A program made the position numbers and the translations under genes. This document shows positions 16,334-63,216 of a stretch of 64,000 nucleotides of DNA, in pieces. How positions within the stretch are numbered: position 1 is the stretch's first letter; each line of letters begins with the position of its first letter. The notes beneath the pieces were generated by a model. The model was not told where the DNA came from, searched no databases, and saw nothing but the letters and a program-made list of their open reading frames with translations. This stretch comes from an uncultured Candidatus Saccharibacteria bacterium (GTDB lineage Bacteria > Patescibacteriota > Minisyncoccia > Phycocordibacterales > UBA1006): assembly GCA_964415895.1 (NCBI GenBank), contig CAYQCC010000004.1, forward strand, positions 243-64,242, in the 5' to 3' direction.

Positions 16334-16416
16334 TCATACCAGATGCACAAAAAAAGTCACCTTATAACAAAATGACTTTTTCTTATGAAATAAAGAATGT
16401 ATATTTATTGATGTAA

Positions 16417-35207: not shown

Positions 35208-35289
35208 ATTTTATGGTTTCAAATAAAAAAGGAAATAAAGATATTAAAATAATCTTTATTTCCTATAATTTTTTAAATAGTTTATTAAA

Positions 35290-37452: not shown

Positions 37453-37463
37453 TTGGTTCTGTT

Positions 37464-37868: not shown

Positions 37869-38016
37869 AAAATATTTTCATTAGTTGATAATATTCCTAT
37901 GATATTAAAAATGGATAAATACAATATGAGGGCGAAATTGCATATGGCTGTCTTTAAAGTAATAACCGCACGTTGGTTGCGTGGATATTAAAATCCACGC
38001 TTCACAAAACTTGCGG

Positions 38017-38523
38017 TTATTCAAATTGTATTTTCATCTTATCTATCAACGACTGTTGCAAAACTTGCAAGCGTTCAATGTTTTCATCAGATTTCTTTTG
38101 TATTGTTTTTCTTTTTAAAGTATTTCTTTTGTTATGTTCGCAATCACGAACAAGTCTTATTCGTGATTGCGAACAAGTCATGTCGCAAATGCGAACAAGT
38201 CGAGATTCATAAAAAAGAAGTGGATGTCCTCTTCGTTCATGTGCTTGATGCAGTTCAGTCTCCTTTCCATCTGTTACGACAAGTAAACTCTTGTCTATTA
38301 AACTTTGAATTGTTTTTGAGAGTACTGTCCTATACAATCCTGTCTTTTTGAGAATGAAGCTGTAACTTAGTCTGTCCTTTATTTTCCGCTTTCCTGTTTT
38401 GCTGTCTATCCACCCAACAGTTTGGCGAAGCACAATTAATAGCACACGAAGTTCTGCGTGTGTAAGTATTGGAATATGTTCAAAAAGTTCATTAGGTACT
38501 GGCGTAGTGTTCTCAAGTGACAT
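38017..38523 (-). CDS. Putative replication initiator / DnaD-like winged-helix protein
   Basis: LTHAELRVLLIVLRQTVGWIDSKTGKRKIKDRLSYSFILKKTGLYRTVLSKTIQSLIDKSLL is typical of phage/plasmid Rep wHTH. Contains internal iteron-like DNA repeats. Confidence 0.45.
   Translation of the reverse strand: MSLENTTPVPNELFEHIPILTHAELRVLLIVLRQTVGWIDSKTGKRKIKDRLSYSFILKKTGLYRTVLSKTIQSLIDKSLLVVTDGKETELHQAHERRGHPLLFYESRLVRICDMTCSQSRIRLVRDCEHNKRNTLKRKTIQKKSDENIERLQVLQQSLIDKMKIQFE
38140..38212. repeat. Iteron-like direct repeats plus 11-bp inverted repeat inside the Rep-like gene
   Basis: Three copies of cgaacaagtc and the palindrome gcaatcacgaa...ttcgtgattgc. Confidence 0.55.
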
Positions 38524-38592
38524 GAAAACTACAGTACACGAGGAAATTTGAATACAATATGAATGCTTTTTTGCTGATGCAAAAATTGCCTT

Positions 38593-38820
38593 ATGTTGTG
38601 TAACAAAAAATGGAGATATGGTGCAAACATGGAAGAAATTCTCGCAATGGAAAAAGATGTAAAAAAGCTGATTTTAGAAGAAGAAAAAAATCTTCTAAAT
38701 TCAGGCTTTACACAAGAGGATATAACGATACTTTATGAGGCATTGGAATATATAGCATACCCTGTCATTGCAGAGTATTGTGAGCATGGAACGATTACAG
38801 ACATTGACGAAATCGAGTAA
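38593..38820 (+). CDS. Hypothetical small acidic protein
   Basis: 75 aa. Confidence 0.25.
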   Translation: MLCNKKWRYGANMEEILAMEKDVKKLILEEEKNLLNSGFTQEDITILYEALEYIAYPVIAEYCEHGTITDIDEIE

Positions 38821-38873
38821 ATTTTAGACTATGATATACTTTCTTTATTATCAGCGAATAACTCTATTGATCT

Positions 38874-40424
38874 ATGAATATTACTAAACTAGCACTTATT
38901 TATTGTCGTGTCAGTTCCAAGCAACAATTGGATGGTGGCGGTCTTGGTAGCCAAGAACAAAGATGCCAAGAATATGCAAAATTTAACGGATATGAAGTTG
39001 TGGAAATATTCCACGATTCTTTTTCTGGTGGTGGTGACTTTATGAAACGACCTGCTATGCGTCAATTATTGGCGTATGTTGATGAACACTCACAAAATCA
39101 GTATGTAGTTATTTTTGATGACTTAAAACGCTTTGCACGAGATGTAAAATTTCATTGGGAATTGAGGAGTGAATTTGAATCACGAAACCTTATACCTGAA
39201 TGTTTAAACTTTAAATTTGAAGAAACACCAGAGGGAGCTTTTATTGAAACAATCATAGCTGCACAAGGTGAGCTCGAACGTAAACAACAAAAAAGACAGG
39301 TGTTGCAAAAAATGAAAGCACGAATGCAGAGGGGTTTGTCTTGCTTTCCTACTGCACCATACGGATATACCTATGTTGCAAGTTCCTTGCATGGCGGAAA
39401 GATCTTACAGATTGATAAAGAAGCATCAAAGGTTGTAAGGATGGCATTTTCCGAATTTGCAAATGGTAAATTATTTCATCTAAGAGATGTGACTAAGTTT
39501 CTTACAACAAATAGTGTAAGAAAAAAGAAAGTTGCATTTAAAGACGAAACTGTAAAAAGCATGTTGAGTAATGTTATCTACATTGGTTTCTTAGAATATC
39601 CGACATGGAATGTAGAACTTACTAAAGGTGTTCATGATGCAATTATTCCACTCGAATTATTTGAAAGAGTACAAATAAGATTAAAAGGTAAAATACCGCA
39701 AAGAACTCGTGTTGATATGAGAGAGGACTTTCCACTTCGTGGATATGTAAACTGTATTCATTGCAAACGTCAATTAACAGCATCTTGGAGTACAGGCAGA
39801 ATAGGGTCGAAACATCCTTATTATCGTTGCCATACCAAAGGATGTGTCATGGCAGGAAAAAGCATACAGAAAAAAGAACTGCATGATTTTTTTGAAGAGT
39901 ACATAAAACCACTCTCATTTAAGCCACAAATTAAAACAATAGCAAAACTTAAAATTCTTGAAGAGGCATTGAGAAGAAATAAGATAAAATATTTAGAATT
40001 AGAAAAAAAGAAACAGGAAATTATTTTAATAGATCAACAAATAGAAACTTTAGTTGAAAGGCTTTCTGCGCCACTAGATAGAAGTATTGCTGAGATATAC
40101 GAAAGCCAAATTGCTAATCTGAATAAAAAAAGAATTTTATTAAATGAGATCTCTATAAAAGATGATACTAACCCTAAATTGTTGGAACCTATAGTAGATA
40201 TTGCCTTTAAAAAGAGTGAAAACCCTTATGCTACATGGAAAAAAGACAAATACGAACTACAAAAACAGGTGTTGAATATGCTGTTTTATACCAATTTAGA
40301 ATATGGTAAAAAAGAGAAGTTTGGAAACACGAACGAGGCTTATTTATTAAGGCTTTTTAAGAGAATTGAGATTGAAAACAACCAAAATTTACAGCATGTC
40401 GAGATGCAGGGATTCGAACCCTGA
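38874..40424 (+). CDS. Large serine recombinase
   Basis: Resolvase domain with catalytic Ser in YCRVSSKQQ. Recombinase domain and Zn-ribbon CIHCKRQL...YYRCHTKGC. The 3' end overlaps tRNA-Pro by 26 nt. Confidence 0.85.
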   Translation: MNITKLALIYCRVSSKQQLDGGGLGSQEQRCQEYAKFNGYEVVEIFHDSFSGGGDFMKRPAMRQLLAYVDEHSQNQYVVIFDDLKRFARDVKFHWELRSEFESRNLIPECLNFKFEETPEGAFIETIIAAQGELERKQQKRQVLQKMKARMQRGLSCFPTAPYGYTYVASSLHGGKILQIDKEASKVVRMAFSEFANGKLFHLRDVTKFLTTNSVRKKKVAFKDETVKSMLSNVIYIGFLEYPTWNVELTKGVHDAIIPLELFERVQIRLKGKIPQRTRVDMREDFPLRGYVNCIHCKRQLTASWSTGRIGSKHPYYRCHTKGCVMAGKSIQKKELHDFFEEYIKPLSFKPQIKTIAKLKILEEALRRNKIKYLELEKKKQEIILIDQQIETLVERLSAPLDRSIAEIYESQIANLNKKRILLNEISIKDDTNPKLLEPIVDIAFKKSENPYATWKKDKYELQKQVLNMLFYTNLEYGKKEKFGNTNEAYLLRLFKRIEIENNQNLQHVEMQGFEP

Positions 40425-44738: not shown

Positions 44739-45491
44739 TCAAGAGACGGAAACTAAACTGAATTCTTTTGGCATAGGTGCTTCGAAAGAATATTCCTTTC
44801 CATCAAGATCAGAAAACGTGAGCTTTTTTGCATGAAGCGCTACTCGATTAAAGCCAAGTAAACCAACGCTTTTTGGCGCATACAGACCATCACCAATAAT
44901 AGGATGTTGAATTGATTTCATATGAACGCGCAATTGGTGTGTTCGTCCCGTTTCTGGAAACATTGATACTAATGAATAACGATTCCCTTTTGTATCTGCA
45001 AACTTCTTTTGTGTGACATAGCGAGTTACTGCAGGACGTAGCATTCCACGGGCACCACGACTGGTCGTCCATACACGAATATCGGTCGGATGACGTCCGA
45101 TCGCTGTACTGACGGTTCCACGATCATCTGCCCAGTCCAGTACGATTGCTGTGTATTCCTTTTGAATAGTGTGATCTTGGAATTGTTTTTTTAGTGATTC
45201 ATACGACTCTTTGGTTTTTGCAATAACCATGACACCGGATGTTTCGCGATCCAATCGATGAACGATTCCTGGTCGATCCAACGTCAGCTTCTCGCCTTTA
45301 TGGTCAATAACAAGAGGTTCACCTACTCCTTTAATATCAGGATGTGTTTCTAAAATCCAGTCGATCAACGTTTTACCTTCCCGACGTCCATCAGGATGTA
45401 CAACAAGACCAGATGGTTTGTTTATAACCAACACGTTTTCATTTTCAAATAATATTGTTGGTGTTAATGAGTTCATAACCACAGTATGCAC
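44739..45491 (-). CDS. RluA-family pseudouridine synthase
   Basis: Catalytic [12 protein letters not shown] motif. No S4 domain. Confidence 0.8.
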
Positions 45492-45539
45492 AAACCAGCC
45501 CCAATGTAAAAGAAAAACCTATAAGACCTTAATCGAAGA

Positions 45540-46052
45540 TCAAGTACTTATAGGTTCAAACTTAGTAATTTGTTTTGTTGCAATTCCAAGAGTTATCAGT
45601 CTCTTTGCAGTAATTCGCTGACCGTCCAGTGCATGTACTTGTGGTTTTGTCAGACTTGTCTTGCTAGAAATAAAACCAGCCATTTGATCACGTAAGTCCG
45701 ATAATCTTTTGTGGTCTATAGCAGGAATTATAATATAATTCGAGACAAAGACTGGCAAATGGATAATTCCAACGGACTCTAGAACAATAATACGCTCGTC
45801 ACCTAATAAAAATATTTTCAGGAAAGAAGAGACAAAGAGTTTTCCTATAGTTGAAACTTTTGTTCCGGATTTTTGAAGTTCCAGAATGCATGATTCAATT
45901 TCCTTATAGAATCCTATCTTTCCTCCGCTCTGAGCATTTATATAAATGATGATTTCGGCCGCAGATCGATTGTTAGTGCAAAAAGCCTTGAACTGTGCAA
46001 CATTTCCTTCTGAAAGTTCTTCAGAAAAGAAAAATGATGGTGTGTCCTTCAT
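45540..46052 (-). CDS. ClpP/S14-like protease-fold protein
   Basis: IIIYINAQSGGKIGF...IIHLP resembles the ClpP core. Only 170 aa, with atypical Ser context. Confidence 0.45.
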   Translation of the reverse strand: MKDTPSFFFSEELSEGNVAQFKAFCTNNRSAAEIIIYINAQSGGKIGFYKEIESCILELQKSGTKVSTIGKLFVSSFLKIFLLGDERIIVLESVGIIHLPVFVSNYIIIPAIDHKRLSDLRDQMAGFISSKTSLTKPQVHALDGQRITAKRLITLGIATKQITKFEPIST

Positions 46053-46320
46053 TTGACTTTTGTTTTTGTTTGATATATAATAGCATTGTTTATTAATTTA
46101 GTCAAGTACCCTCTGGGTACCACAATATATGTCAATGGAATCATTCTCTCAAAATGTGAAATCTGAACCAATCGAAGAAGTTACCGAAGCCGACATTAAT
46201 GTCGACGAAAGCGGAAACATGCGACGCCGACAAGAATTGCAAGATGGATCTGTAGGATTTTGGAGTGACGAAGAGGTTACTGAAGCAAATCGAAACTATC
46301 GAGAAAATCTTCACTAATCA

Positions 46321-46346
46321 TAAAAAACAGGTACTGCCTGTTTTTT
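46321..46346 (+). terminator. Intrinsic terminator
   Basis: aaaaaacaggtactgcctgttttttg. Confidence 0.6.
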
Positions 46347-46382: not shown

Positions 46383-46454
46383 GCCCTTGTAGTTCAATGG
46401 ATAGAACAGGAGACTTCTAAGCTCTTAATCGAGGTTCGATTCCTCGCGAGGGCA
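46383..46454 (+). tRNA. tRNA-Arg (TCT)
   Basis: Anticodon loop CTTCTAA, D-arm GTTC-AATGGATA-GAAC, T-arm CGAGGTTCGATTCCTCG. Confidence 0.8.
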
Positions 46455-46560
46455 CATTCAAGGCCGACGCGGAGGCCTCAAAAACCTTAGCAAATCTTTA
46501 TCTTTTCATTATGTATATTTCGTAATTATTTTATGGTAAGGTTCCATAATATATCCGTAT

Positions 46561-48492
46561 ATGCCTGATGAAAACAAAGAGACAACTCAAGAAAAACCAA
46601 AGAATCCCCTCGAAGGGTTTTTTGGCATCAAGGATACGACTAATCTCTATAACTATGTTTTAGTATTGCTTCGGCCAAAAGGAGTGGCCTACGAAATTGA
46701 TCCACTTTGGACAGCATATCAAAACATTATATCTGGCCAAGATGTAGAGATTACAGAAAATTTGATCATGGAATCATTAGAATTGATATTCAACCTAATT
46801 GAGCATGCACAAGGTAATTCCTGCAATCCTTCACCCTTTGTTACATACTGTGACGATATGGGTTTTTGGTTAAAGCCACGTTTGAAAGAAATTGTTGCAT
46901 ATGTGTCCAAAGTCGCACAAAAATATGATTATATAGAATTATCTGATCAGATAAAAAATATACTCACAGATACGGTTATTGACTCGGTCACTAACGGTAA
47001 TGACCAGGACTTATCTCTTGTTAAGGAGTTCATAAAAGAATTCGTTGTTTTGTATTTTCAAGCTCGATTGGAATTTAACAAAGTACCAGGTCGACTTTTA
47101 TATAAATTTCCAAGGTTCGAGGTTTTTGAAATTCTGAAAAATGAAGAGTATGGTCTTTATGGTCTTAATATGCACTTTTCAAATGGATCAAGCGCAAATT
47201 ATGAGCGTGTTGGCGAAAAAAGAACAGGGATGAATATTATGTGTGATCATCCAATAGGTTTTTTTGTTGGGATGAATGATGATTTAAAAAGGGAGTGGCG
47301 TATCGGCGATAAGCATCTTTACGAAATAGGACTTCCTGGAAGATATAATAATTGGGGCGAGTGGAGACCTCTCGTTCATCCGGGCGATTACACACAATTT
47401 GAGACGGAAAGTGTACGCATTGCTGAAGGCGATCTTGAAATAGCGAGCATCTTATTTTTTGTCATGTGTACTGGGCATAGAATAATTGAATTCGTAGCGA
47501 AAACACCAATAGAAATGCCGCATAGTGACTTTTCTCTGGGTGGCCACCTGTATTTGCATAAATGCGACAAGCCTGAGGAAAGTTCCCATCGGGCAAACGA
47601 TTTTGTTTTATATGATGGTCATTTTACTCTTGATGAACTCACCCCACTTGCGATAAGGTCAGCTATTGCTTCTATAAGTGTAGGCTTGAATCGCATGGCA
47701 TTTGCCTATGGATCAAACATTGAATGGGTGCCTAAATATTCAATGGTTCAGCACAACCCCCACGGCAAACCAACTCCTACTGAGGAGGATTTAAAAGTAC
47801 TTGAATCAATGCTGGTTGATTTTCCAAATAATGAAGACGCTATCGTTCTTGATATCTGCATAGACTGGTTTCACCGTGGGGAACTTGCGAGAAAGAAAAA
47901 TGTATTCCTTGCATTCCTTTGTTACTATATTGCACTAGAGAGTGTCGTTATCGCTATCACGGAAGGAGATGCTGATCTTGGATTTAATTATGAAAAAGAA
48001 ACCCGTACGGAAAGAAAAGATCGAGTGAATCAAGGAATCCGCAGTCTACACGAAGAACTATACGAGACCGATCCTGAAAAATTTATCAAGGAAGCCTATT
48101 TCAATCATGTTATTGGACTTAAACAAAGGACGAAACAAATCTGTGAACGAGTATTTGGAGAGGGTCACGAATATATGAAATCTTTGTTTGAAAAAAATGA
48201 GGACGGGTTTTCCCTTTCTGACTTGAGAAGCGAATTAGCACATGGAGGGGCAACCCTTCTAAGCACAGAACATAGAAAAATGATTCGCGAACGATTACCA
48301 GAACTAGCTGAAATTGTCACCAGTTTTGTTAAAAAAATTATTCTTAAACCAGAGCAGGAGTTTCCTAAATGGTCCCGTTCTCATAGTTTTTCTGTGTATC
48401 CAAGCGATCCAAGAGATACTATGATTATGACCGATGAAAGGGTGACGGGCAATGTGGGTGGCTGGAAAATAAAACCAGAGTGGATGGACTAG
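46561..48492 (+). CDS. Large hypothetical protein with C-terminal HEPN-like Rx4H motif (candidate abortive-infection/RNase)
   Basis: 643 aa. C-terminal LSDLRSELAHGG (R-x4-H) in a helical domain. No other recognised domain. Adjacent to a serine recombinase. Confidence 0.35.
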   Translation: MPDENKETTQEKPKNPLEGFFGIKDTTNLYNYVLVLLRPKGVAYEIDPLWTAYQNIISGQDVEITENLIMESLELIFNLIEHAQGNSCNPSPFVTYCDDMGFWLKPRLKEIVAYVSKVAQKYDYIELSDQIKNILTDTVIDSVTNGNDQDLSLVKEFIKEFVVLYFQARLEFNKVPGRLLYKFPRFEVFEILKNEEYGLYGLNMHFSNGSSANYERVGEKRTGMNIMCDHPIGFFVGMNDDLKREWRIGDKHLYEIGLPGRYNNWGEWRPLVHPGDYTQFETESVRIAEGDLEIASILFFVMCTGHRIIEFVAKTPIEMPHSDFSLGGHLYLHKCDKPEESSHRANDFVLYDGHFTLDELTPLAIRSAIASISVGLNRMAFAYGSNIEWVPKYSMVQHNPHGKPTPTEEDLKVLESMLVDFPNNEDAIVLDICIDWFHRGELARKKNVFLAFLCYYIALESVVIAITEGDADLGFNYEKETRTERKDRVNQGIRSLHEELYETDPEKFIKEAYFNHVIGLKQRTKQICERVFGEGHEYMKSLFEKNEDGFSLSDLRSELAHGGATLLSTEHRKMIRERLPELAEIVTSFVKKIILKPEQEFPKWSRSHSFSVYPSDPRDTMIMTDERVTGNVGGWKIKPEWMD

Positions 48493-48494
48493 AC

Positions 48495-49799
48495 CTACTC
48501 CATCATCAATTTCTTATCTTTCAATAAGATCTTACTCTTAATACAACTCAGCACCTCTCGTTTCTCGAGCATCGTGCCGTGCTGTAACATGTACTTTGCG
48601 AAGGTTTTAATGTTTATATCATTACGTTTTTTGGATTGTTGCAAATCCTGTTTCAATACCCCTGTCTGGAATAGTGCGTACCGTGCGACTTCTTTTTCAA
48701 GCTTTTGCTTCAATTCAGTCCTGTCGAGGTTCATCTTTTCAATAATCAACAGCATCTCATCGATGAGCAGTGCTTCTTTTACCGATTCATTTGGACAGTC
48801 CCTGTCTTTCACTTTGGTGCATCGGTAGTACACATGCGCATTGGATCCTCCGTCTTTGAGTACCTTGATCTTTTCCTCGGCAGTAATCCCTGAAGCACAA
48901 TAGGCGCAGTGAAGCATGCTCGTGAATGCAAACTCGCGACCGTACGTTTTCTTTTTTTCAACTTTTATTTTCTCTTGCGCGGCTTCAAATAATTCTCGGG
49001 TAATGATGGGTGTATGCTTGCCCGTATACCATTCCCCACTCTTTTCTGGATATTCAAATACTCCATAAAAGAATGTCATGCGAAGCAACCTGTAAATATT
49101 TCCAAGTGTCAACAATTTTCCGCTCTTGGTTTTGAATCCAGTTTCTTTGAGCCATTTGTATATCTTCCTGCCTGAGTAATTTTCATTGGCGACTTTTTCA
49201 AACATTTCTTTGATAATCGGTGCCCTTTTCGGATCCACGAATACCTGGCATTTCTCGTCCTTGTTCTTGCTATTCAGATATCCAGTCGGTGCCATGGATG
49301 GCCTCAATCCCATCGATGCGCGCGTTCGCAATCCTCGCTTCACATTGATCACCTTGTTGTCGTTCTCGAGCTTTGCCTGCGAACCAAGAATCATGAGAAG
49401 GAATTTTTCATTCGGATTGTTCGTGAACCTCTGCCCACCGAACGTTCGTATCTCAGTCAAAAGTCCCTGATCCATCAGATCCACAATTCTTCCGAGATCG
49501 CCTGCATTACGGCTGATACGGTCGGGTGCCCATGTCAGGATTCCATCGAATTTCTTTTGCTTTATTTCCTCGACAATCTCGTTGAATACTGGCCGTTGCC
49601 CTGCCTCCTTTGCGGAATGAGACTCCTGTTTTATGAGCACGATTTCCAAGTTCTCAGCTTCTGCCATTTTCTGCATTTCCTTGATCTGACTGTCTATGGA
49701 AAGTATCTGCTTGTCCTCCTGTTCCGTACTTTTTCGAGCATACAGGCAGTATTTCACCCTTACAGGTATTGACGGTTTCGCCATTACCCCTGTCGCCAT
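48495..49799 (-). CDS. Large serine recombinase
   Basis: YARKSTEQED catalytic Ser region plus recombinase and Zn-ribbon domains. Start taken at MATGVMAKP (49799). The longer ORF to 49955 reads into the IS. Confidence 0.8.
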   Translation of the reverse strand: MATGVMAKPSIPVRVKYCLYARKSTEQEDKQILSIDSQIKEMQKMAEAENLEIVLIKQESHSAKEAGQRPVFNEIVEEIKQKKFDGILTWAPDRISRNAGDLGRIVDLMDQGLLTEIRTFGGQRFTNNPNEKFLLMILGSQAKLENDNKVINVKRGLRTRASMGLRPSMAPTGYLNSKNKDEKCQVFVDPKRAPIIKEMFEKVANENYSGRKIYKWLKETGFKTKSGKLLTLGNIYRLLRMTFFYGVFEYPEKSGEWYTGKHTPIITRELFEAAQEKIKVEKKKTYGREFAFTSMLHCAYCASGITAEEKIKVLKDGGSNAHVYYRCTKVKDRDCPNESVKEALLIDEMLLIIEKMNLDRTELKQKLEKEVARYALFQTGVLKQDLQQSKKRNDINIKTFAKYMLQHGTMLEKREVLSCIKSKILLKDKKLMME

Positions 49800-49928
49800 T
49801 TGTTGCGTTATATTCATACACACCATCAATGACGCAATCCCTCCGAGGAGTCCAGGACGGGTCTGTTGATAACTAATTCCTCTGAAAGTCCCAGATTTCG
49901 TTTTTCCAATGAAGGAATATAATCCGCA

Positions 49929-51197
49929 ATATGCGGTGTTTTTGTTTGGTCGCAAAATTCTAAAAAATATATGAATAAAATATTATCGTACGATGAATAC
50001 CAGAAGAAAATTAAGAGTCTTACTACTCCTGAAGAAATAGCCGCATTCGCTCAGGAACTTATCACCCCCATGCTGAACAATGTCGCAAAGGATGAGCCGA
50101 ATATTGTCGAGGAAAAAATAGAGAAGAAACTGCCTGCTGATGAAAAGCCAGCAAGCCTACCTACTATCAAGCCTAAGTATAACCGCAGGAATCCTTATCA
50201 GCTGGAAACGATGAGTCCTTGGTATGACGTGGTTGGAAACGACACCGAAGCCATGGTTATCGATCTCTATGCTAAAGGCCTGACTACTCGAGACATCGTA
50301 AACCATCTGAAGCGAAGCCATAACATCGACATTTCCCAGCCCAACGTATCCACGATCACCGACAAGGTATTTCCGCTGGTTAAAGAATGGCAATCCCGCG
50401 CATTGTCATCATGTTATCCGATTCTGTATCTCGACGGCATGCACTTCAAGGTTCGGGATGCTGGGAAGATTTCCTCAAAGGTCGCGTATATCGCTCTTGG
50501 TATCAATCAGTATGGACACAAGGAAATTCTCGGCATCTGGATCAGTGAAACTGAAGGGGCGAAATTCTGGATGCATGTCTTGAACGATCTGAAGAATCGT
50601 GGAGTCGATGACATTCTCATCGCGTGCGTTGACGGATTGAAAGGTTTTCCCGAAGCCATCAAGGCCATGTATCCGCATACCGATGTTCAAGTCTGCGTAG
50701 TTCATCAGATCAGACACACTGTTATGTTCATTGCATCGAAAGATAAGGAAAAGTTTTCCGATGAGTTAAAAACTATCTACACTGCACCATCTGAAGATGC
50801 AGGGTTGGAGGCTCTGAAGAACATGCAGGAACGATGGCCGATTTACCAAGCGTATCTGAAAGGTTGGGAGACGCGCTGGGCAGATCTCGCGCCATTCTTC
50901 AGCTATCCGCAAGCCGTGCGAAAGACCGTTTACACGACAAATGCGATTGAAAATCTCAATCGCCAATTCAGAAAGGTAACCAAGACGACACAACTATTCC
51001 CCCATGACGATGCGCTCTTGAAATTGCTCTGGCTTGCGCAAGCAGACATCACGCAAAATTGGCAAATGGCCATCCGCAATTGGGGCGAGGTCATGGCACA
51101 GCTTAGCATCATGTTTCCTGATCGGGTGCAGTTCTAATAACCAAACTATTAACACTTACTAATTAGCGCGACGCAAACAGATGTTTACACCGCATAT
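49929..51197 (+). mobile_element. IS256-family insertion sequence
   Basis: Transposase gene flanked by imperfect inverted ends atatgcggtgt... (left) and ...acaccgcatat (right). Confidence 0.6.
49971..51137 (+). CDS. IS256-family (Mutator-type) transposase
   Basis: 388 aa. ALGINQYGHKEILGIWI...CVDGLKGFPEAI...VQVCVVHQIRH conserved DDE region. Confidence 0.85.
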   Translation: MNKILSYDEYQKKIKSLTTPEEIAAFAQELITPMLNNVAKDEPNIVEEKIEKKLPADEKPASLPTIKPKYNRRNPYQLETMSPWYDVVGNDTEAMVIDLYAKGLTTRDIVNHLKRSHNIDISQPNVSTITDKVFPLVKEWQSRALSSCYPILYLDGMHFKVRDAGKISSKVAYIALGINQYGHKEILGIWISETEGAKFWMHVLNDLKNRGVDDILIACVDGLKGFPEAIKAMYPHTDVQVCVVHQIRHTVMFIASKDKEKFSDELKTIYTAPSEDAGLEALKNMQERWPIYQAYLKGWETRWADLAPFFSYPQAVRKTVYTTNAIENLNRQFRKVTKTTQLFPHDDALLKLLWLAQADITQNWQMAIRNWGEVMAQLSIMFPDRVQF

Positions 51198-51202
51198 AAA
51201 AA

Positions 51203-51228
51203 ACCAAGATCATATCCTGGTTTTTTAT
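51203..51228 (-). terminator. Intrinsic terminator downstream of tRNA-Arg
   Basis: aaaaaaccaggatatgatcttggtttttt on the minus strand. Confidence 0.55.
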
Positions 51229-51233
51229 CTAAG

Positions 51234-51306
51234 TGCCCTCGGCAGGACTCGAACCCGCATCTTCCTCAGTAGAACAGAGGCACCCTATCCATTGGACCAC
51301 GAGGGC
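51234..51306 (-). tRNA. tRNA-Arg (probable TCT anticodon), second divergent copy
   Basis: Acceptor GCCCTCG/CGAGGGC, T-arm GCGGGTTCGAGTCCTGC, anticodon arm CCTCT-GTTCTAC-TGAGG with a T-T closing mismatch. Only about 70% identical to the tRNA-Arg at 46383 (aligned by eye) and higher GC. Confidence 0.6.
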
Positions 51307-51422: not shown

Positions 51423-52421
51423 TTACTTTTTTATTTGCATCGATTCTACTCTCTGTATCAGTTTCCATCCGTTTCCATGCGACAGCAGTCCGCGGTACGA
51501 ATTAACCACTGCCTCATCCCCTGCATAGATCCCTGGATTGCTGAGCATTCTACGCTTCGTTGCAGTACGCAGTGTCCGATGATGTGGAAAATGAACCCAC
51601 CCGAGAAAATCTATCCCCGAGGCAAGCGTCTTGATAAATAATTTATTCGGATGCAACGATAATTTTAATTTGGTTTCGAGAAACTCGGAAATCTGCGGAA
51701 CGAGGTTTTCTAAGTAATCCTTGTCCTCATGCAGAATGGCGAAATCGTCCGCATAACGAATATAGTGTTTTATTTTGAGCGTTCGCTTCATGAAGTGGTC
51801 AAATTCATTCATATATACGTTCACCAGAAGTTGTGATGTTAGGTTTCCCAACGGCAAGCCGACATCGACTCTGCCTTCGGTCGAAAAACTATCGATGAGC
51901 CGATCGAATAACTGAAGAAGCTTCTTGTCCTGAATATGCTCCGACAGAATCCTTTTTAGGATTACATGGTCAATGTTCGCAAAGAATTTCCTGATGTCGC
52001 ATTTCAAAATCCAGCACGCCCGCGTATTGTTTTTGGAAACGATGCGCGAGAAATCTGTGAAGCGATTCATCGCCTTATGAGTCCCCTTGTTGATGCGACA
52101 GGAATACGAATCATAGATAAATTTTTTATCAAAATATGGGTACAGTTCATCATGCAAGAGATGGTGCAGTAATCGATCTCGCACCGTCGCCTTATGGATA
52201 TTCCTCGGCTTCGGGTCACTAATTTTAAATGCATCATATCCGCTATGGTGATACTTTTTATATTTCAAATCGTGATGCACATTTAATATGTGTTCCATTA
52301 AATTTCTTTCGAACTCTAGCACGTCGCGTTTTTGTTTTTTGCCGCGGCGAAACTCACGCCATGCGTGTAATAAATTTTCAACCGATATGATATCATCATA
52401 GTTATGATCAAAAAACTTCAT
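51423..52421 (-). CDS. Diversity-generating retroelement reverse transcriptase
   Basis: RT motifs: ISDPKPRNIHKATVRDRLLHH (motif 1/2), LGNLTSQ (the DGR-specific IGxxxSQ replacing QGxxxSP), YADDFAIL (YxDD). Start taken at MKFFDHNYDDIISVENLLHAW. The ORF-track start 52607 reads through a poly-C tract. Confidence 0.85.
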   Translation of the reverse strand: MKFFDHNYDDIISVENLLHAWREFRRGKKQKRDVLEFERNLMEHILNVHHDLKYKKYHHSGYDAFKISDPKPRNIHKATVRDRLLHHLLHDELYPYFDKKFIYDSYSCRINKGTHKAMNRFTDFSRIVSKNNTRACWILKCDIRKFFANIDHVILKRILSEHIQDKKLLQLFDRLIDSFSTEGRVDVGLPLGNLTSQLLVNVYMNEFDHFMKRTLKIKHYIRYADDFAILHEDKDYLENLVPQISEFLETKLKLSLHPNKLFIKTLASGIDFLGWVHFPHHRTLRTATKRRMLSNPGIYAGDEAVVNSYRGLLSHGNGWKLIQRVESMQIKK

Positions 52422-52839
52422 TCCAATAATATTACCCCCCCCCCCGACGATTTTACCAGTGCTGAGTAAGGTAAAAACTGTGTACATCTCATGGTTCGAT
52501 GTGTATAAAAAATTAGAAAAAGTACATAAATACACGCTCGGACAAAAGATTGATAATTTGTTTGTTGAGATTATAGAATCGATATCGCTCGCGACGTTTT
52601 TGGACAAAACAGAAAAACAGCCGTGGATCAGATTTGCGATCAGGAAATTGGATACGGTGAAAATACTGCTATTGATATTATGGGAAACACGCTCGATTGA
52701 TGATACGGTCTACATTACCCTGTCAGAACCAATCCACGAGATTGGTAAAATGCTGGGTGGTTGGAACGGGCAGCTGACAAAACTGTCCGAGAATGCAAAA
52801 TAAAACTCATCCAGATTTTGGATGAGAAACGAAATAATA

Positions 52840-52968
52840 TGCTGGAACGGAACACGAAACGGTTGTTCCCATTCCACCTGTTGTCCATGTGGCCATTGTT
52901 GTTGTTCAACCACGGTTCGGAATCGTTCCGATTCACGTTGAACAGTTTCGGGTCACCGTCTGCGTCAG
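52840..52968 (-). repeat. DGR template repeat (TR)
   Basis: About 129 nt, near-identical to 53317-53448. Every mismatch corresponds to an adenine in this copy on the minus strand. AAC-rich when translated (NNNNGHMDNRWNGNN). Confidence 0.85.
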
Positions 52969-53221
52969 TATTATATGTGATGCCATCCGTGCCACCATCC
53001 ATCGATTCACCCTGTGAGAATTTCTGAATTGAATTTGATTTGATATCTAAAATACCCTAGCACCACATACCAAGTAACTTCATTTTTTGAAGTGTCTACA
53101 TGAATTGCGCTCTACAAGACCGTGATGTTGCAGACTCTGAATTCATGGATACTGATTTCGGTCGTGGCCATCGTAATGAGCCACAGATTAACCTACTCTC
53201 ATCTTAAATATACCATATGAA

Positions 53222-53252
53222 AAAAAATCCTGCCGATGGTGGCAGGATTTTT
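53222..53252. terminator. Intrinsic terminator after the DGR target gene
   Basis: aaaaaaaatcctgccgatggtggcaggatttttt. Confidence 0.65.
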
Positions 53253-53308
53253 TAAGTTCTAAATGCATAGTTTCAAAGTGCCAGTGCACAATATCACAGT
53301 TCACAGGA

Positions 53309-55237
53309 CTAAGACTTGCTGGAACGGAACACGAAACGGTAGAGCCCATGCCACCCGCTGTCCACGCGGCCATAGCAGTAGTAGTCCAACCACGGTACGG
53401 AAGCGTACCGAGACACGCGGAACAGTACCGGGCCACCGCCTGCGCCAGCAATCGGTTCCATTGCAATTCGTAGATATTCGTCATTTGGCTGATCGGTGTA
53501 CGACAATCGCAATTCTGGTCCCACCTGTGGCGGACACAGTTCCAATCCCATGGATCGTGCCTTGTCATAAATTTCCTGCAACGTCGCGCCGTTTGGAAAC
53601 CCAAGCTGTTCAACGGAAAATGAAACGAGCTTGATCTGCTCAGGAGATTTCAATGGCTCAATCTTGTTTAAGATTTGCTGCGCGTAGGTATATACCTGAT
53701 TACCCTTATCAATGAGCTCTTTTGTGTACTGTTCTGGCGTCTTGGTAGACAATTCCAAAGATTGCTTGAAGATTTTTGTCTCTGGGAATGATTCGTACAG
53801 ATACTGTACTGTGTCAGGCATTTTTTGATATATGTCGACATTCCACGGTCCGATATAAGCGACGGTATGTTCATTTACCTGATCAACATTATTTGCAATT
53901 TGGTCTGGCGTGCAGTCAAAAATTACAGGCGCGTCATCCATTGCATTTCTGGTTGAGAGAATTTCTGCAATACGCGGATCTTTCTGGTAACCGAACCCTT
54001 CAATGGAACCATCCATTTCGTACAAGAACCGAAGGTCGGCCGATGACAGCGCTAACCCTGCGCGATTCTTTTCAGTAATCGCAGTGAGATGTTTCATGTC
54101 GGCGGATCGTTTAAGATATTTCTCCCCCTCTGCGCCAAACTCTGACAATTTTTCATCGATCACTGGCTGGATGAACTGGTCGACATTCTGGTCTTTTTCG
54201 ATTCCGCGAATTTCGGAAATACTATCCCCAGTCATTCGGATCGCGATGCGAGGAATCACGGAAATTCCCTGCTCGTCCTGGGAATAGTACACATGGAAAT
54301 CGCCACCTTGTAATTGTGTTCGTGCCGTTTCAATGTTCGTGGCAGTGCACCATTCCAGCGGATATCCCTGAAGCGATTCGTAGAGCTCGTTCGGTTCTGA
54401 ATTTTCTGGATATGTCTTCCATTTTCCTGCAATATTCTCGAGATGTTTCCATGACATTCCTGAGAATTGCTCCAATGCGTGGGTGTACAGTTTTGAAAAG
54501 TTTTCGGTAGACACCAGTTCGCGATACGTGCCGTCATGATTCAGCGAATACATCAACTCCTTTTCTTTCTTTTGGCGATCCAGCATGTTGACCTCGTCTT
54601 TCGGAATTCCCGAAAGGGCGACCTGCTTTTGGATCACGTCAATGGTCTTTGCGAGGCAGGCAATGTTGAGCGTCGGGAACGGCTGCGATGTCGTTTTGGT
54701 TCTCCTGCCGTATCGGGCTTCCTTTTTGTTGTATCCACCCATTTCTGTCATGCTGCGGAATGCCCAGTATTTTGCCCAGTCCGGGTACAGCGCATCTGGT
54801 GATGAAAGGTAGTCAATCCATGCATCGAGTGACCGTCGCTGTCCGTCTTGAATTTCCTTGATCTTTTTCTCTTCCCAATCTGGTGTTGGTTCGGGTCTCC
54901 CGTGTCCCTGCTGTTCTGCGATTCGCTGTTCCTGGTCAAGGAAGTAATCCAACGGGATGTTTTCTGGGCTGATGATCAGTTGTTTGTGAAGCACTCGCTT
55001 CATTGCCTCGATCCCCATGGCGCGCTTTTCTGGATCTTGGCGATCTAAAATTTCCTTGAACCTATTCAGGTAGTTTTCAATGCGATCTTCTGGCTTCTCG
55101 GAAACCTTTTCACCCTTGCGATATTCGGTCCGTTCGGCAGATTTCACCACTTCTGGTGAGGTATGCAGGTTTGCGTATTTCTTCTTGAGAAAATTAATCG
55201 GGTTTTCCATATGCATAACTTTACCACATATTGTCAA
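53309..55237 (-). CDS. DGR target protein with C-terminal variable region
   Basis: 642 aa, no signal peptide. The last ~45 aa (…GGGPVLFRVSRYASVPWLDYYCYGRVDSGWHGLYRFVFRSS) are encoded by the VR. The N-terminal 600 aa are uncharacterised. Confidence 0.75.
   Translation of the reverse strand: MTICGKVMHMENPINFLKKKYANLHTSPEVVKSAERTEYRKGEKVSEKPEDRIENYLNRFKEILDRQDPEKRAMGIEAMKRVLHKQLIISPENIPLDYFLDQEQRIAEQQGHGRPEPTPDWEEKKIKEIQDGQRRSLDAWIDYLSSPDALYPDWAKYWAFRSMTEMGGYNKKEARYGRRTKTTSQPFPTLNIACLAKTIDVIQKQVALSGIPKDEVNMLDRQKKEKELMYSLNHDGTYRELVSTENFSKLYTHALEQFSGMSWKHLENIAGKWKTYPENSEPNELYESLQGYPLEWCTATNIETARTQLQGGDFHVYYSQDEQGISVIPRIAIRMTGDSISEIRGIEKDQNVDQFIQPVIDEKLSEFGAEGEKYLKRSADMKHLTAITEKNRAGLALSSADLRFLYEMDGSIEGFGYQKDPRIAEILSTRNAMDDAPVIFDCTPDQIANNVDQVNEHTVAYIGPWNVDIYQKMPDTVQYLYESFPETKIFKQSLELSTKTPEQYTKELIDKGNQVYTYAQQILNKIEPLKSPEQIKLVSFSVEQLGFPNGATLQEIYDKARSMGLELCPPQVGPELRLSYTDQPNDEYLRIAMEPIAGAGGGPVLFRVSRYASVPWLDYYCYGRVDSGWHGLYRFVFRSSKS
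53317..53448 (-). repeat. DGR variable repeat (VR)
   Basis: Matches TR except at TR-adenine positions (about 25 substitutions) and one 3-nt indel in a triplet run. The identical 3' segment gctggaacggaacacgaaacgg is IMH-like. Confidence 0.85.
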
Positions 55238-55541: not shown

Positions 55542-57260
55542 GTGTTGCCTATGTCTTATACAGAAAAAGAGCTTATTGCTCAAATTTCAGAATTACAATC
55601 TGAAATCAAAAAATTAAAGGCTCGAAAAAAATACGGACTCGTCTGGGAAGACAAACCAGAAGATGTGGTTTTGCAGTGCGAAACTAACGTCCCTATTCTA
55701 AAAGAAGTTAAGGCCAGAAAGCTGGTATCCGATAATTCGCTCCCAACGAATCTTTTGATCGAGGGAGACAATTATCACTCACTTTCTGTTTTGAACTACA
55801 CACATAAAGGAAAAATAGATCTGATTTATGCAGATCCTCCTTACAACACTGGCAATAAAAGCTGGAGATACAACAATGACTACGTAGAAAAAGAAGATTC
55901 ATTCCGTCACAGTAAATGGATTTCGTTTTTTGAAAAAAGACTGCGCTTAAGTCGTAACCTTTTAAACGACAAGGGTATTATTGTTGTAACGATTGACGAT
56001 TATGAGATCGGTACTGTGCGATTACTAATGGATGAAGTTTTTGGAGAAGAAAACCGTCTGGGGCTGGTGACGATAATGCACAACCCACGAGGAAGAAGTG
56101 ATGATAAATTTTTTGCCACCTCACATGAATACGCACTTTTTTATTCAAAAAATATAGACAGTGCTATTACCCATAAAATCGACCTGACCCAAGAGCAAGC
56201 AGATCTATTTAATCTTTTTGATTCGATCTCTAACTATAGACTTCTTCCCCTTAAAAGAACGGGATCGAATTCAACCCCAAAAGAACGACCCAAATTATTT
56301 TTTCCAATTTTTGTAAACAAAAAAACACTTGAAATTTCAACAAAAAAACAAGGTACTGGGTGGATAGAAGTACTACCTAAAGACGGAACAGGATCTGATC
56401 GTGTATGGCGTTGGGGTAAGGAAAAAATTGAGAAAGAATGGAAGACAGAACTTGTTGCAAAAATAAAGAACGATAAATGCTCACTATTCACAAAAGATAG
56501 AATAAAATCTGGTCGCAAACCAAAAACAATTTGGATCGAACCAAGCTACGATGCCTCATCGCATGGAACCGTACTGTTGGAAAACATTCTTAATAAGAGA
56601 AAGGTTTTTGACTACCCAAAATCACTCTATGCCGTCATCGATACCCTTAAAATAGTTTCAAAAGAAAATAAAGATGCTATCATTCTCGACTTCTTTGCAG
56701 GCTCTGGTACGACGGGCCACGCTGTTCTCGAGCTCAATAAACAAGACGGCGGGAATCGAAAGTTCATACTCTGCACTAACAATGAGAACAAGATTGCCGA
56801 GGAAGTAACCCACGAGCGCCTCAAGCGAATAATAAAAGGATACAAAAACAAAAAAGGAGAGAATGTTGAAGGTCTCGGCGGTAATTTGTCGTACTTCAAA
56901 ACTGATCTCGTTAGTATTGATAAGCTCCGCCGTATTTCAGATGATGCAAAAATAAAAGTTACCTATCGAGCAGGTGAAATGATCGCCCTGCGTGAAAACA
57001 CGTTGAACGAAATTGAGAAAAACGATTGGTGGCAGATATTCGAAGGCAATGGAAAATTAACAGCAATATATTTCACAGAGAGCAAATCAAAACTCATAGA
57101 CCTTCTGGATTTGCTTGAGAAGAAAAATATGCCGACCAATTTGTATATTTTTGGCTGGGGAAAAAATGAGTACAAAAACGATTATTCCACGAAGATTATC
57201 CGAGTCGAGGATATTCCAGAACCGATCCTTGAGGTCTACAAGGAAATTAACCGCATCTAA
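55542..57260 (+). CDS. mod: Type III restriction-modification methyltransferase (Mod, N6-adenine)
   Basis: IYADPPYNTGN (DPPY) followed later by FFAGSGTTGHAV (FxGxG). 572 aa. Confidence 0.85.
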   Translation: MLPMSYTEKELIAQISELQSEIKKLKARKKYGLVWEDKPEDVVLQCETNVPILKEVKARKLVSDNSLPTNLLIEGDNYHSLSVLNYTHKGKIDLIYADPPYNTGNKSWRYNNDYVEKEDSFRHSKWISFFEKRLRLSRNLLNDKGIIVVTIDDYEIGTVRLLMDEVFGEENRLGLVTIMHNPRGRSDDKFFATSHEYALFYSKNIDSAITHKIDLTQEQADLFNLFDSISNYRLLPLKRTGSNSTPKERPKLFFPIFVNKKTLEISTKKQGTGWIEVLPKDGTGSDRVWRWGKEKIEKEWKTELVAKIKNDKCSLFTKDRIKSGRKPKTIWIEPSYDASSHGTVLLENILNKRKVFDYPKSLYAVIDTLKIVSKENKDAIILDFFAGSGTTGHAVLELNKQDGGNRKFILCTNNENKIAEEVTHERLKRIIKGYKNKKGENVEGLGGNLSYFKTDLVSIDKLRRISDDAKIKVTYRAGEMIALRENTLNEIEKNDWWQIFEGNGKLTAIYFTESKSKLIDLLDLLEKKNMPTNLYIFGWGKNEYKNDYSTKIIRVEDIPEPILEVYKEINRI

Positions 57261-57264
57261 TTAT

Positions 57265-59556
57265 ATGTTTGCACTCAAACCATTCCAAGAAAATGCCATC
57301 GGTCACCTCAAGGAGAAGTTTCTGACGCTGTGGAAACTCGGCGATCGCAATTTGAGCCTCACACTCAAATCCCCAACAGGATCTGGGAAGACGGTCATGA
57401 TGGCGCAATTCCTGCGAGACATCGTATCGGATCCGCGATTCCAAAATGCCGATGTCGGATTCTTGTGGATCACTAATTCGGATTCATTGGCTATGCAGTC
57501 AAAAGAAAAGCTGTTTTCGTATTATGGAGGAGCAAGTGAGAACACGTTGCTCGATCTGAATGATCTACGTGACGGCTATATTCCCAAGAACGGAGTATTC
57601 TTCATCAACTGGCAGAAATTGGTATCGCGAGCGCAGACCAACAGAAAACTTCGTGCGGAAGGCGAACTCAATACCACTTTTGACGAATATTTGGATGCCA
57701 CCCATGCACAAGGACGAGAGGTCGTCCTGATTATAGACGAGGAGCATATCGCCTCATCTACCGTTCTTGCAAATGACCTGATTCAAAACGTTATCAAGCC
57801 ACGAATCATCATCGGAGTTTCCGCTACCCCACAAACGGTCGGAGTCACCGTCGATGTTGATCGTGCCGATGTCGTTCGCGAAGGTCTCATCAAAGAGAAA
57901 ACTATCTTCCAAACCGAGGAAGATTTGGCACATCCCGAATTCAAGGGAATGGATCAGGACGATATTCTGCTTACCCTTGCATACAACAAGCGAGCCGAGC
58001 TTGCCAGTTACTATGCTGATCTTGGTATCGATATAAATCCCTTAGTGCTTATCCAGCTTCCAAATGACGACAAGTCTTCAGAGGGATCGAAGCAGGATCT
58101 GATTATCAACTTCCTCAAGTCAAAGGGAGTATTCGAGCACGAAATCGCAGTCTGGCTCTCAGAAGATAAAATAAATCTCGATGCAATCGAGAAAAATAAT
58201 TCGCCTGTTTCATTTTTGCTTTTCAAGCAAGCGGCGGCTACTGGTTGGGATTGTCCTCGCGCAAGTGTCCTGGTTATGTTCCGCGAAATTAAGAATCCGA
58301 CATTTGCAATCCAAACGGTAGGACGCATTCTGCGCATGCCACTTGGAACACATTTTCCAAAACCTGAATTGAATCTCGGTTATCTCTACACCAATTACAA
58401 GCGAAATGAAGTGATTATGGGATACTCAAAATCTACCGACCAGAACCGCCCTGCCATCTACGGGAGTTACCGCAAGCAGTCCATCGAACCGATCATGCTT
58501 GAATCCGTATTCATGAGCCGAACCGATTACAACGACCTTGGTGACAGTTTTCAAGACGAGTTCAAAAAGATTGCCGATGAGTATTTCTTGCTCAAGGGAA
58601 ACATTACCGCAAAAACCGTACGCAAGAATTTCTCTGACAAAGGACTTGATCCTGATACTGTCGTTACGAACGGACTCATCATAGGAGTGGAAATTGACGA
58701 TTACGACAACTTCAAACAGGAACTCCTTTCAGAAGGCAGTAGCCATGAGCAGGAAATGTCCCAGCACGATCTCGAGCGACTCTATAACCTCTTTTGCTTC
58801 AATCTGCTCGCAAAACAAACCGACGAGAATAAGAAGTTTGCGCCAGAGCGTTCATGGGGTAAACTCAAGACAGCCTTGAACGTTTGGCTACTGGGACATT
58901 TCGAAGAACCTCGACAAAAAATCTATTCGATTATTGTCGGAGACCTCTTAAAAACAAATAGCGTCCTCGCACCTCTTATCGGAAAATCTCTTGAATCATA
59001 TCGATCTATACGCGAACATGAGGTCAATCGAAAATCGGAACGCGCGAAGCGGACTGAAAAAATCGAAATCCCTCGGCAAAGCATTTTCTATACTGATCAA
59101 TATGAAGAGATGGATGTTAGGAAATCAGCTATGACTCCGTTTTATATTGAAAAGGATTACAAGGGTGACGATAACGAAAAGGAATTTATAAAGTTCCTTG
59201 AAGAAAGCAAGAACGTCACATGGTGGTACAAGAACGGCGATGCTGGTAGTGAATTCTTTTCGATATCCTATTTCAACCCAGACGAGAACAAGGAGAAGCT
59301 TTTCTATCCCGACTGGATATTCAAGGTAAAGGATACAGTTTGGATCGTTGATACAAAGAAAGGCTTTACGGCTGAATCTGCTGACACTAAATACAAATCC
59401 GAGGCACTCCAACAATGGCTCAAAGGTAAGAAAGAATTCACGGGCGGAATAGCAGTGCAAGATGGTCCGAACGGATGGAAGTTTAACCGCAATACTATCT
59501 ATTCTTACACGCCATCATTTACCAAATGGGATGATTTGAAGGATTTATTCGCATAA
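57265..59556 (+). CDS. res: Type III restriction enzyme Res subunit (SF2 helicase-nuclease)
   Basis: Walker A KSPTGSGKTV, DEEH box LIIDEEHIAS, helicase motif VI QTVGRILRMP. Starts 5 nt after mod. Confidence 0.85.
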   Translation: MFALKPFQENAIGHLKEKFLTLWKLGDRNLSLTLKSPTGSGKTVMMAQFLRDIVSDPRFQNADVGFLWITNSDSLAMQSKEKLFSYYGGASENTLLDLNDLRDGYIPKNGVFFINWQKLVSRAQTNRKLRAEGELNTTFDEYLDATHAQGREVVLIIDEEHIASSTVLANDLIQNVIKPRIIIGVSATPQTVGVTVDVDRADVVREGLIKEKTIFQTEEDLAHPEFKGMDQDDILLTLAYNKRAELASYYADLGIDINPLVLIQLPNDDKSSEGSKQDLIINFLKSKGVFEHEIAVWLSEDKINLDAIEKNNSPVSFLLFKQAAATGWDCPRASVLVMFREIKNPTFAIQTVGRILRMPLGTHFPKPELNLGYLYTNYKRNEVIMGYSKSTDQNRPAIYGSYRKQSIEPIMLESVFMSRTDYNDLGDSFQDEFKKIADEYFLLKGNITAKTVRKNFSDKGLDPDTVVTNGLIIGVEIDDYDNFKQELLSEGSSHEQEMSQHDLERLYNLFCFNLLAKQTDENKKFAPERSWGKLKTALNVWLLGHFEEPRQKIYSIIVGDLLKTNSVLAPLIGKSLESYRSIREHEVNRKSERAKRTEKIEIPRQSIFYTDQYEEMDVRKSAMTPFYIEKDYKGDDNEKEFIKFLEESKNVTWWYKNGDAGSEFFSISYFNPDENKEKLFYPDWIFKVKDTVWIVDTKKGFTAESADTKYKSEALQQWLKGKKEFTGGIAVQDGPNGWKFNRNTIYSYTPSFTKWDDLKDLFA

Positions 59557-59562
59557 AAAAAT

Positions 59563-61101: not shown

Positions 61102-61127
61102 AATGCCTCTATGTAAACCAGATTCAC

Positions 61128-63205: not shown

Positions 63206-63216
63206 ACGATTATTGG

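Follow-up and report, generated by a model that had tools for sequence, protein, structure and literature searches.

Do two tRNA-Arg genes that stand in inverted orientation on either side of a recombinase gene mark the ends of a single mobile element, and what might the unannotated protein encoded between them do? We addressed these questions in a 64,000-nt window, by which we mean the whole stretch of DNA analyzed here (contig CAYQCC010000004.1 of the Candidatus Saccharibacteria assembly GCA_964415895.1, positions 243 to 64,242 of the forward strand). The source genome belongs to the Patescibacteria (candidate phyla radiation [CPR], Paceibacteria-like). Between the two tRNA-Arg(UCU) genes, here called A and B, lie a gene for a 643-residue protein, a large serine recombinase gene, and an insertion sequence (IS) of the IS256 family. 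An original prediction, made by reading the window alone, held that the two tRNA genes bracket these three genes and that the 643-residue protein is an abortive-infection or toxin RNase carried as cargo. Below, L-numbers denote the loci of relatives or homologs that were compared, and P-numbers denote homologous proteins of the 643-residue family. The explanation that we favor, with reasonable but limited confidence, is that DNA was inserted at the 3' end of tRNA-Arg A, that the 643-residue protein is a HEPN RNase carried by the recombinase element, and that tRNA-Arg B is a passenger.

An insertion that starts two nucleotides past tRNA-Arg A

ARAGORN found five tRNA genes in the window, two of which are tRNA-Arg(tct): A at 46383–46455 on the plus strand and B at 51233–51306 on the minus strand. 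Both were also recovered by Rfam (A, 63.7 bits, E = 3e-12; B, 52.0 bits, E = 6e-9; gathering score 29). The positions and orientations given in the original prediction were therefore borne out, as was the anticodon of B, for which a check had been advised and which ARAGORN reads as tct. An RluA-like gene just left of tRNA-Arg A (44739–45491) led to relatives among the Patescibacteria, and a metagenome scan with a 38-nt piece of A returned 70 loci, from which the empty sites were drawn. In three close relatives (L060, L053, and L075; RluA-like protein 91–93% identical), the tRNA-Arg gene is followed by a 53-nt spacer and by tRNA-Val(TAC) at +126/127; the contigs of L060 and L075 extend beyond this point and show tRNA-Ser(TGA) another 3.4–3.8 kb on. 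The anatomy of the locus, its synteny with these relatives, and the left junction were observed directly: homology between the window and L060 ends at 46456/46457, after ...GAGGGCA-CA and 2 nt past the discriminator base of A, so the 3' end of A is the insertion point and resembles an attB site.

Neither tRNA-Val, nor tRNA-Ser, nor any downstream sequence of L060 was found between this junction and position 64000, at the DNA or the translated level. By this comparison, the inserted or variable region begins at 46457 and has not ended at 64000, which gives it a length of at least 17.5 kb and places tRNA-Arg B inside it. The two tRNA genes therefore do not bracket an element in the way first proposed, since the native flank does not resume past B. 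Joint occurrence of the two tRNA genes at the same loci in all relatives would have spoken against an import, and we found instead that the relatives with an empty site carry A and lack B. The ancestral order would have been tRNA-Arg(UCU), 53 nt, and tRNA-Val(UAC). Mobile and defense DNA, at least 17.5 kb in all, has accreted between the two, with the break exactly 2 nt past the discriminator base of tRNA-Arg, and tRNA-Arg B would be a passenger in this DNA and not a boundary. Overall, the locus is an accreted mosaic genomic island at a tRNA hot spot of a CPR genome. Such islands are well known, and ordinary genome-island biology covers the presence of two tRNA genes, of the IS256 element, and of a diversity-generating retroelement (DGR) further downstream. 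What is new here is the 643-residue protein, an unannotated stand-alone defense candidate that is probably of HEPN type, and the recurring placement of serine recombinase genes at tRNA 3' ends.

In the two closest genome relatives, L007 and L008, the contigs end inside tRNA-Arg A, which made them unusable as empty sites. Both contigs break within tRNA-Arg(TCT) (L007 1–89 and L008 1–96), at window positions of about 46438–46444, and the breaks fit strain-variable insertions at tRNA-Arg in those populations too. On the other side of the tRNA gene, the window carries an 828-bp stretch (45516–46342) with a 170-aa open reading frame (ORF) on the minus strand and a 62-aa ORF on the plus strand, neither with a family match. 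This stretch is absent from L060, where the RluA-like gene sits 66 nt from tRNA-Arg; L053, L075, and L007 have a stretch of similar length at this position that is too diverged for alignment by blastn.

A foreign-type second tRNA-Arg gene

An alignment of the two tRNA genes has 47 of 74 columns in common, or about 64%, which is lower than the roughly 70% estimated in the original prediction; the shared features named there were recovered, with identical D-loops and nearly identical acceptor stems. Differences fall in the D-stem, the anticodon stem, the variable loop, and the T-stem, and B has a U31-U39 mismatch, G32 together with C38, and a 5-nt variable loop. B is also GC-richer (0.61 vs 0.49 for A), as had been stated. 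tRNA-Arg A has the same sequence as the tRNA-Arg of L060 (100% identity) and shares its type with those of L007, L008, L009, and L011; the syntenic tRNA-Arg(TCT) genes of the relatives share the D-arm and the anticodon arm with A, and B is the outlier. Since the syntenic tRNA-Arg in every relative matches A and fails to match B, and the relatives with an empty site have no B, this comparison identifies A as native and B as imported, in agreement with the original prediction.

Where B came from is less apparent. Together with a hairpin and T-run at about 51200–51228, a likely terminator, it forms an orphan segment of ~190 bp with the IS on one side and the DGR on the other. No exact match to its anticodon arm was found in viral contigs or in the 116 loci fetched by then, and a phage collection gave only generic matches of ~75% to actinophage tRNA-Arg genes. 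B resembles the argU-type extra tRNA-Arg(UCU) genes of phages and islands in being a second, divergent, GC-richer copy in acquired DNA, but differs from them in that no phage genes adjoin it. A20 and C35 are identity elements for arginyl-tRNA synthetase. B retains both, A20 within the D-loop, and its Rfam score is good; hence it is probably functional.

A gene pair of a 643-residue protein and a large serine recombinase

The module nearest to tRNA-Arg A consists of the gene for the 643-residue protein (46561–48492, plus strand) and a recombinase gene on the minus strand (48495–49817; ORF to 49955). The two ORFs are convergent, with stop codons 2 nt apart, as the original prediction had described. 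The probable start of the recombinase, M47 at 49817, was judged from the homolog in L001. The recombinase matches the Pfam families Resolvase (PF00239, E = 1e-20) and Recombinase (PF07508, E = 4e-16), both above cutoff, and Zn_ribbon_recom (PF13408) at 22.9 bits, just below the cutoff of 25.3 bits. It carries the catalytic serine motif YARKSTEQE and matches a PHROG integrase at E = 3e-61. By its domain set and its catalytic motif, the protein is a large serine recombinase. Its best NCBIfam match is CcrB (118 bits vs a 900-bit cutoff).

The same gene pair stands at another tRNA gene. In L001, tRNA-Trp (plus strand) is followed after ~150 nt by a gene for a 641-aa homolog (63% identical, plus strand) and by a convergent serine recombinase gene (54% identical, minus strand), the 3' ends of the two genes overlapping. 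Because this pair adjoins tRNA-Trp in L001, we infer that the 643-residue protein is the cargo of a serine recombinase element that integrates at tRNA 3' ends. The recombinase would be the integrase that targets the tRNA 3' end, and the 643-residue protein gene would lie between the attachment (att) site and the integrase gene. Convergence of a large serine recombinase gene on a tRNA 3' end recurs in L073, L078, L086, and L119, and among these loci and the window the gene sometimes overlaps the tRNA 3' end; in L119, the tRNA is tRNA-Asn and a member of the 643-residue family lies 1.3 kb from the recombinase gene. L009 was considered as a further case of the same insertion and rejected: its recombinase homolog is not beside tRNA-Arg, and housekeeping genes lie between them.

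The window holds another island at a tRNA gene. A segment of ~11 kb (29408–40390), absent from L007 and L008, sits right after the 3' end of tRNA-Pro and splits a tRNA-Pro/tRNA-His tandem, with a TCGACA repeat at both junctions. It carries a different large serine recombinase gene (38874–40424), the 3' end of which overlaps tRNA-Pro and reads into it, and also a tyrosine integrase gene (36190–37452). The junctions of both islands fall after "discriminator A + CA".

Targeting of tRNA genes is classically a habit of tyrosine integrases. In these genomes, precise insertion at tRNA 3' ends seems to be the work of large serine recombinases and not of tyrosine integrases, as seen twice in the window and in several relatives. 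The islands built by Ccr recombinases in staphylococcal cassette chromosome (SCC) elements and by phage serine integrases offer a parallel: the recombinase here has their Resolvase, Recombinase, and Zn-ribbon domains and finds its best NCBIfam match in CcrB, and those elements likewise have a precise insertion site, a recombinase gene at the edge, and defense-type cargo. By contrast, the target here is a tRNA 3' end, and the recombinase scores far below the CcrB cutoff.

A likely HEPN-type domain with an invariant Rx4H motif

The 643-residue protein belongs to a family without annotation. We collected 70 full-length homologs, all of the named ones from Patescibacteria, and an exhaustive profile search returned 692 clusters at 50% identity. 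An AlphaFold2 model of the protein (predicted local distance difference test [pLDDT] score 90) has helices at 29–174, a strand-rich part at 179–391, and helices at 410–594, which suggests three parts: an N-terminal domain of helices, a middle domain rich in beta strands, and a HEPN-like helical C-terminal domain (~405–594). Modeled separately, the C-terminal domain is all-helical (pLDDT 86). The string LRSELAHGG, which the original prediction had singled out, corresponds to R556-x4-H561. Residue conservation was observed directly: E460, R556, and H561 are invariant in 61 aligned homologs and remain so in an alignment of 18 C-terminal domains, so the motif is real and is accompanied by an upstream invariant glutamate. 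A conserved Rx4-6H catalytic motif defines the HEPN superfamily (Anantharaman et al. 2013, PMC3710099), and the motif of the 643-residue family falls within this pattern.

Matches to HEPN models recurred among the homologs at sub-threshold scores. In Pfam, HEPN_RiboL-PSP was matched by 4 of 61 homologs (best E = 2e-3) and HEPN_Apea by P0001 (E = 0.15) and P0203 (E = 0.025), all below the curated cutoffs. PADLOC gave Csx1 (E = 3e-3) and three CARF_HEPN models (about E = 8e-3), again below cutoff, along with one or two matches each to AbiTi, DzbB, a 2TM effector, and CRISPR-Lon. Csm6 (E = 0.06, below cutoff) was the only NCBIfam model matched by more than one member. A Foldseek search of the PDB with the C-terminal domain weakly matched Csm6 of T. 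thermophilus (probability 0.69, E = 0.66) and a HEPN toxin (7bxo_D, TM-score 0.57 on the target, E = 2.5); these were the natural proteins of highest match probability among the weak Foldseek matches, none of which reached E <= 1e-3. The whole chain gave nothing at E <= 0.1 against the PDB and viral predicted structures, and sequence-profile searches of the PDB with full-length and C-terminal profiles returned chance matches only. Nevertheless, since four libraries and the fold search agree on HEPN families, and an invariant E...Rx4H accompanies them, a HEPN-type domain in this family is likely.

The predicted domain resembles those of known HEPN RNases (RiboL-PSP-HEPN, the HEPN domains of Csm6 and Csx1, and HepT) in its invariant Rx4H motif, its upstream acidic residue, and its all-helical make-up. 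It differs from them in its size (~190 aa, with long insertions) and in matching their models only below threshold. Unlike the HepT and CRISPR HEPN systems, the gene has no antitoxin (MNT) or CARF partner.

A sister subfamily of ~480–527 aa (P0161, P0162, P0164, P0169, and P0170) has the N-terminal domain, the middle domain, and the C-terminal tail of the family and lacks the C-terminal helical domain. Its members carry an Rx4H motif, RNAFYHSDY, in the N-terminal helical domain, at a position where the 643-residue family has none. Homology between the C-terminal domain and the N-terminal helical domain of the sister subfamily was considered and not supported, as hhalign aligned the motif only (18 columns, probability <1%). 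The candidate catalytic motif occupies a different domain in each subfamily, and it may have shifted between domains during the evolution of the family. The pattern is suggestive, and only suggestive, of a constant requirement for some Rx4H-bearing helical domain.

A candidate stand-alone defense protein

Gene neighborhoods were observed directly in ten genomic contexts, the window included. Defense or toxin genes are neighbors in four of them: L043 (STAND ATPase, PIN/MazE, and SIR2), L118 (TIR and Mrr), L004 (PIN), and L002 (NERD and HD, next to Bro-N). L005 is a prophage-like element with a serine recombinase gene. No partner gene is conserved across the ten contexts, and no member of the family was found in the phage genomes of INPHARED or the viral contigs of IMG/VR. 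With homologs in defense or mobile contexts, the earlier suggestion of a toxin or abortive-infection RNase cargo is reasonable. By analogy, we infer an RNase activity and a role in defense, and the best reading is a stand-alone, ApeA-like HEPN RNase.

ApeA is reportedly a single-protein HEPN anti-phage system, as described by Gao et al. in 2020. It has ~600 aa in N-terminal, Mid, and split-HEPN domains, and it cleaves tRNA anticodon loops on infection, when a filled ligand pocket triggers the cleavage (bioRxiv 10.64898/2026.01.26.701840). The 643-residue protein is likewise of ~600 aa, stand-alone, without a partner gene, and found in defense-island or mobile contexts. By its model, it too would have an N-terminal helical, a middle, and an enlarged C-terminal HEPN-like domain with insertions, a layout analogous to that of ApeA, and in both proteins minimal HepT-type toxins would be the closest structural neighbors of the HEPN part. 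By contrast, its middle domain is beta-rich and of ~210 aa, and the protein has no fold match to any solved structure. PADLOC gave no ApeA match for the window protein (E up to 1) or the 61 homologs (E up to 10), so by sequence the family does not belong to ApeA. If the analogy holds, detection of an infection cue would fall to the N-terminal helical domain and the beta-rich middle domain and would activate the C-terminal HEPN-type RNase (E460...R556-x4-H561), which would act as a dimer, with tRNA or some other RNA as its probable substrate, in the manner of ApeA.

The genomes of Patescibacteria are tiny, and for a long time few defense systems were expected in them. A widespread family of 692 clusters that is unnamed in Pfam, NCBIfam, PADLOC, and PHROGs is a testable candidate for a new single-protein RNase immunity gene. 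Its further reading as a new, largely CPR-borne family of ApeA-like HEPN RNases for defense, with an undescribed sensor module (helical and beta-rich, no fold match), is tentative, and we consider it rather doubtful. At its boldest, this reading would have the foreign tRNA-Arg(UCU), whose G32/C38 anticodon loop is unusual, serve as a cleavage-resistant spare.

Alternative explanations

Several observations weigh against the favored explanation of a tRNA-Arg A insertion with a recombinase-borne HEPN RNase and a passenger tRNA. Comparison with an empty site, the route to the att sites that the original prediction had proposed, located the left junction; the right junction lies outside the window, where the native side is expected to read ...CA/ACATACGACTTGC... 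and to continue into tRNA-Val. No att-site similarity between the window and L001 was detectable when the tRNA-to-gene spacers and the regions upstream of the recombinase genes were aligned. A serine recombinase gene lies within 5 kb of the family member in 4 of the 10 contexts (the window, L001, L005, and L119). The join between the recombinase region and tRNA-Arg B may itself be the product of IS-mediated rearrangement, because the IS lacks a target-site duplication. As to the protein, the window member has no match in Pfam, NCBIfam, PADLOC, or PHROGs, and no HEPN model reaches its curated threshold in any homolog. No Foldseek match has an E-value of 0.1 or lower, and folds made of helices alone are prone to promiscuous matching. 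An Rx4H string is expected about once by chance in a protein of this size, so that only its invariance carries weight. The HEPN fold of the original prediction draws on recurrent sub-threshold matches, with no model at threshold and a non-significant fold search on the other side. Moreover, the commonest Pfam match in the family (47 of 61 members) and its strongest Pfam signal is MauJ, a family without an assigned function; a literature search for MauJ and HEPN together found nothing useful. With the tight adjacency of the two genes in the window and in L001, these observations would also suit a protein that is no nuclease toxin, either an accessory of the recombinase element (for directionality, maintenance, or exclusion) or an unrelated "MauJ-like" CPR protein. 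We think this improbable: 6 of the 10 contexts have no recombinase gene, 4 have defense or toxin neighbors, and the invariant E...Rx4H and the recurring HEPN matches across four libraries and Foldseek would be left unexplained. The known recombination directionality factors, furthermore, are small proteins, unlike one of 643 residues.

The two tRNA genes invite explanations of their own. The 4.8-kb segment between them might be an invertible or self-contained cassette, with the recombinase acting on repeats formed by the 3' (and 5') ends of the tRNA genes, which would then be the functional boundaries: inverted repeats (I4 and I5; 23 nt, 87% complementary) are present there, A and B have the same 3' acceptor strand, and a serine recombinase gene lies in between. 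Such similarity, however, is expected for any two tRNAs of the same anticodon, and the recombinase is of the large serine integrase type (PHROG- and CcrB-like), not a small invertase. Its homologs adjoin single tRNA genes with no inverted partner (L001 and L119), the IS256 element and a terminator stand between the recombinase region and B, and the ancestral neighbor tRNA-Val is missing beyond B, all of which makes a cassette very unlikely. Alternatively, B might be tied to the island functionally, either as extra decoding capacity for AGA and AGG in foreign genes rich in these codons or as a spare that resists an anticodon nuclease, possibly the 643-residue protein. Consistent with this, AGA and AGG make up 45% of the Arg codons in the 643-residue protein gene and 37% in the recombinase gene, vs 18% in 14 core genes of the window; A20 and C35 are retained, the G32/C38 anticodon loop is unusual, and anticodon loops are what HEPN defense proteins such as ApeA cleave. 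These percentages come from small numbers, though (31 and 24 Arg codons), and the enrichment is a weak rationale for an extra tRNA-Arg(UCU). An extra tRNA-Arg is present at 0 of 9 other homolog loci, the IS separates B from the 643-residue protein gene, and B lies outside the DGR cassette too, as described below. A functional tie is therefore quite unlikely, if less so than an invertible cassette.

The IS256-family element

The IS (49929–51197, plus strand; transposase 49971–51137) is present as a single copy in the window. Its transposase matches PF00872 (E = 5e-85) and NF033543 (325 bits vs a cutoff of 150), and imperfect terminal inverted repeats lie at 49929–49953 and 51168–51197. The left end is ~110 nt upstream of the probable recombinase start, consistent with the earlier observation that the element abuts the 5' region of that gene, and the IS would have landed there later. 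No target-site duplication of 8–9 bp was found: the flanking 8 bp at 49921–49928, AATCCGCA, do not match those at 51198–51205, AAAAAACC. Two explanations offer themselves: an error of a few bases in the placement of the ends, or a rearrangement.

A DGR and the remainder of the insertion

Beyond the IS, the insertion continues with the orphan tRNA-Arg(UCU) gene, the DGR, a type III-like restriction-modification (R-M) pair, and further genes. The DGR (51423–55237, minus strand) lies directly beyond tRNA-Arg B and was overlooked in the original prediction. It comprises a reverse transcriptase (RT) gene (51423 to ~52485, minus strand; RVT_1, E = 2e-22), a bAvd-like gene on the opposite strand that overlaps the 5' end of the RT gene (52459–52803, plus strand; E = 3e-9, 37.7 bits vs a 40-bit cutoff), a template repeat (TR, 52840–52968), and a variable repeat (VR, 53317–53448) at the 3' end of a target gene (53309–55237, minus strand) for a 642-aa protein without a Pfam match. 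A comparison of TR with VR shows 27 A-to-N changes, and all other bases of the repeat agree. With its RT, its Avd-like gene, and a TR/VR pair that differs at TR adenines only, this is by sequence a complete DGR. DGRs are well known in CPR genomes (PMC8144416). The cassette is 91.5% identical at the nucleotide level to that of L114 and about 81% to that of L115, where the Avd gene is likewise on the opposite strand. In both loci, homology stops at the RT stop codon. In L114, L115, and L116, no tRNA gene adjoins the RT gene, and the flanks are unrelated housekeeping genes. With homology that reaches no further than the RT stop codon, and with RT genes in the relatives that stand without a tRNA, tRNA-Arg B is not part of the DGR cassette.

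The type III-like R-M pair (55542–59556, plus strand) consists of an N6_N4 methylase gene (55542–57260) and a ResIII helicase-nuclease gene (57115–59556). The rest of the variable region in the window (59563–64000) holds genes for a DUF2779 protein, a 615-aa product without assignment (minus strand), and a phage-type DNA methyltransferase. The R-M pair and the DUF2779 protein gene, which together span 55542–61101, add to the defense-island character of the insertion. The methyltransferase gene (63588–63998) runs off the end of the window. We noted that a homolog of this methyltransferase, about 50% identical over 71 aa, is encoded in the L001 island (15063–16337); because of it, the two islands may share more than the pair of the 643-residue protein and recombinase genes.

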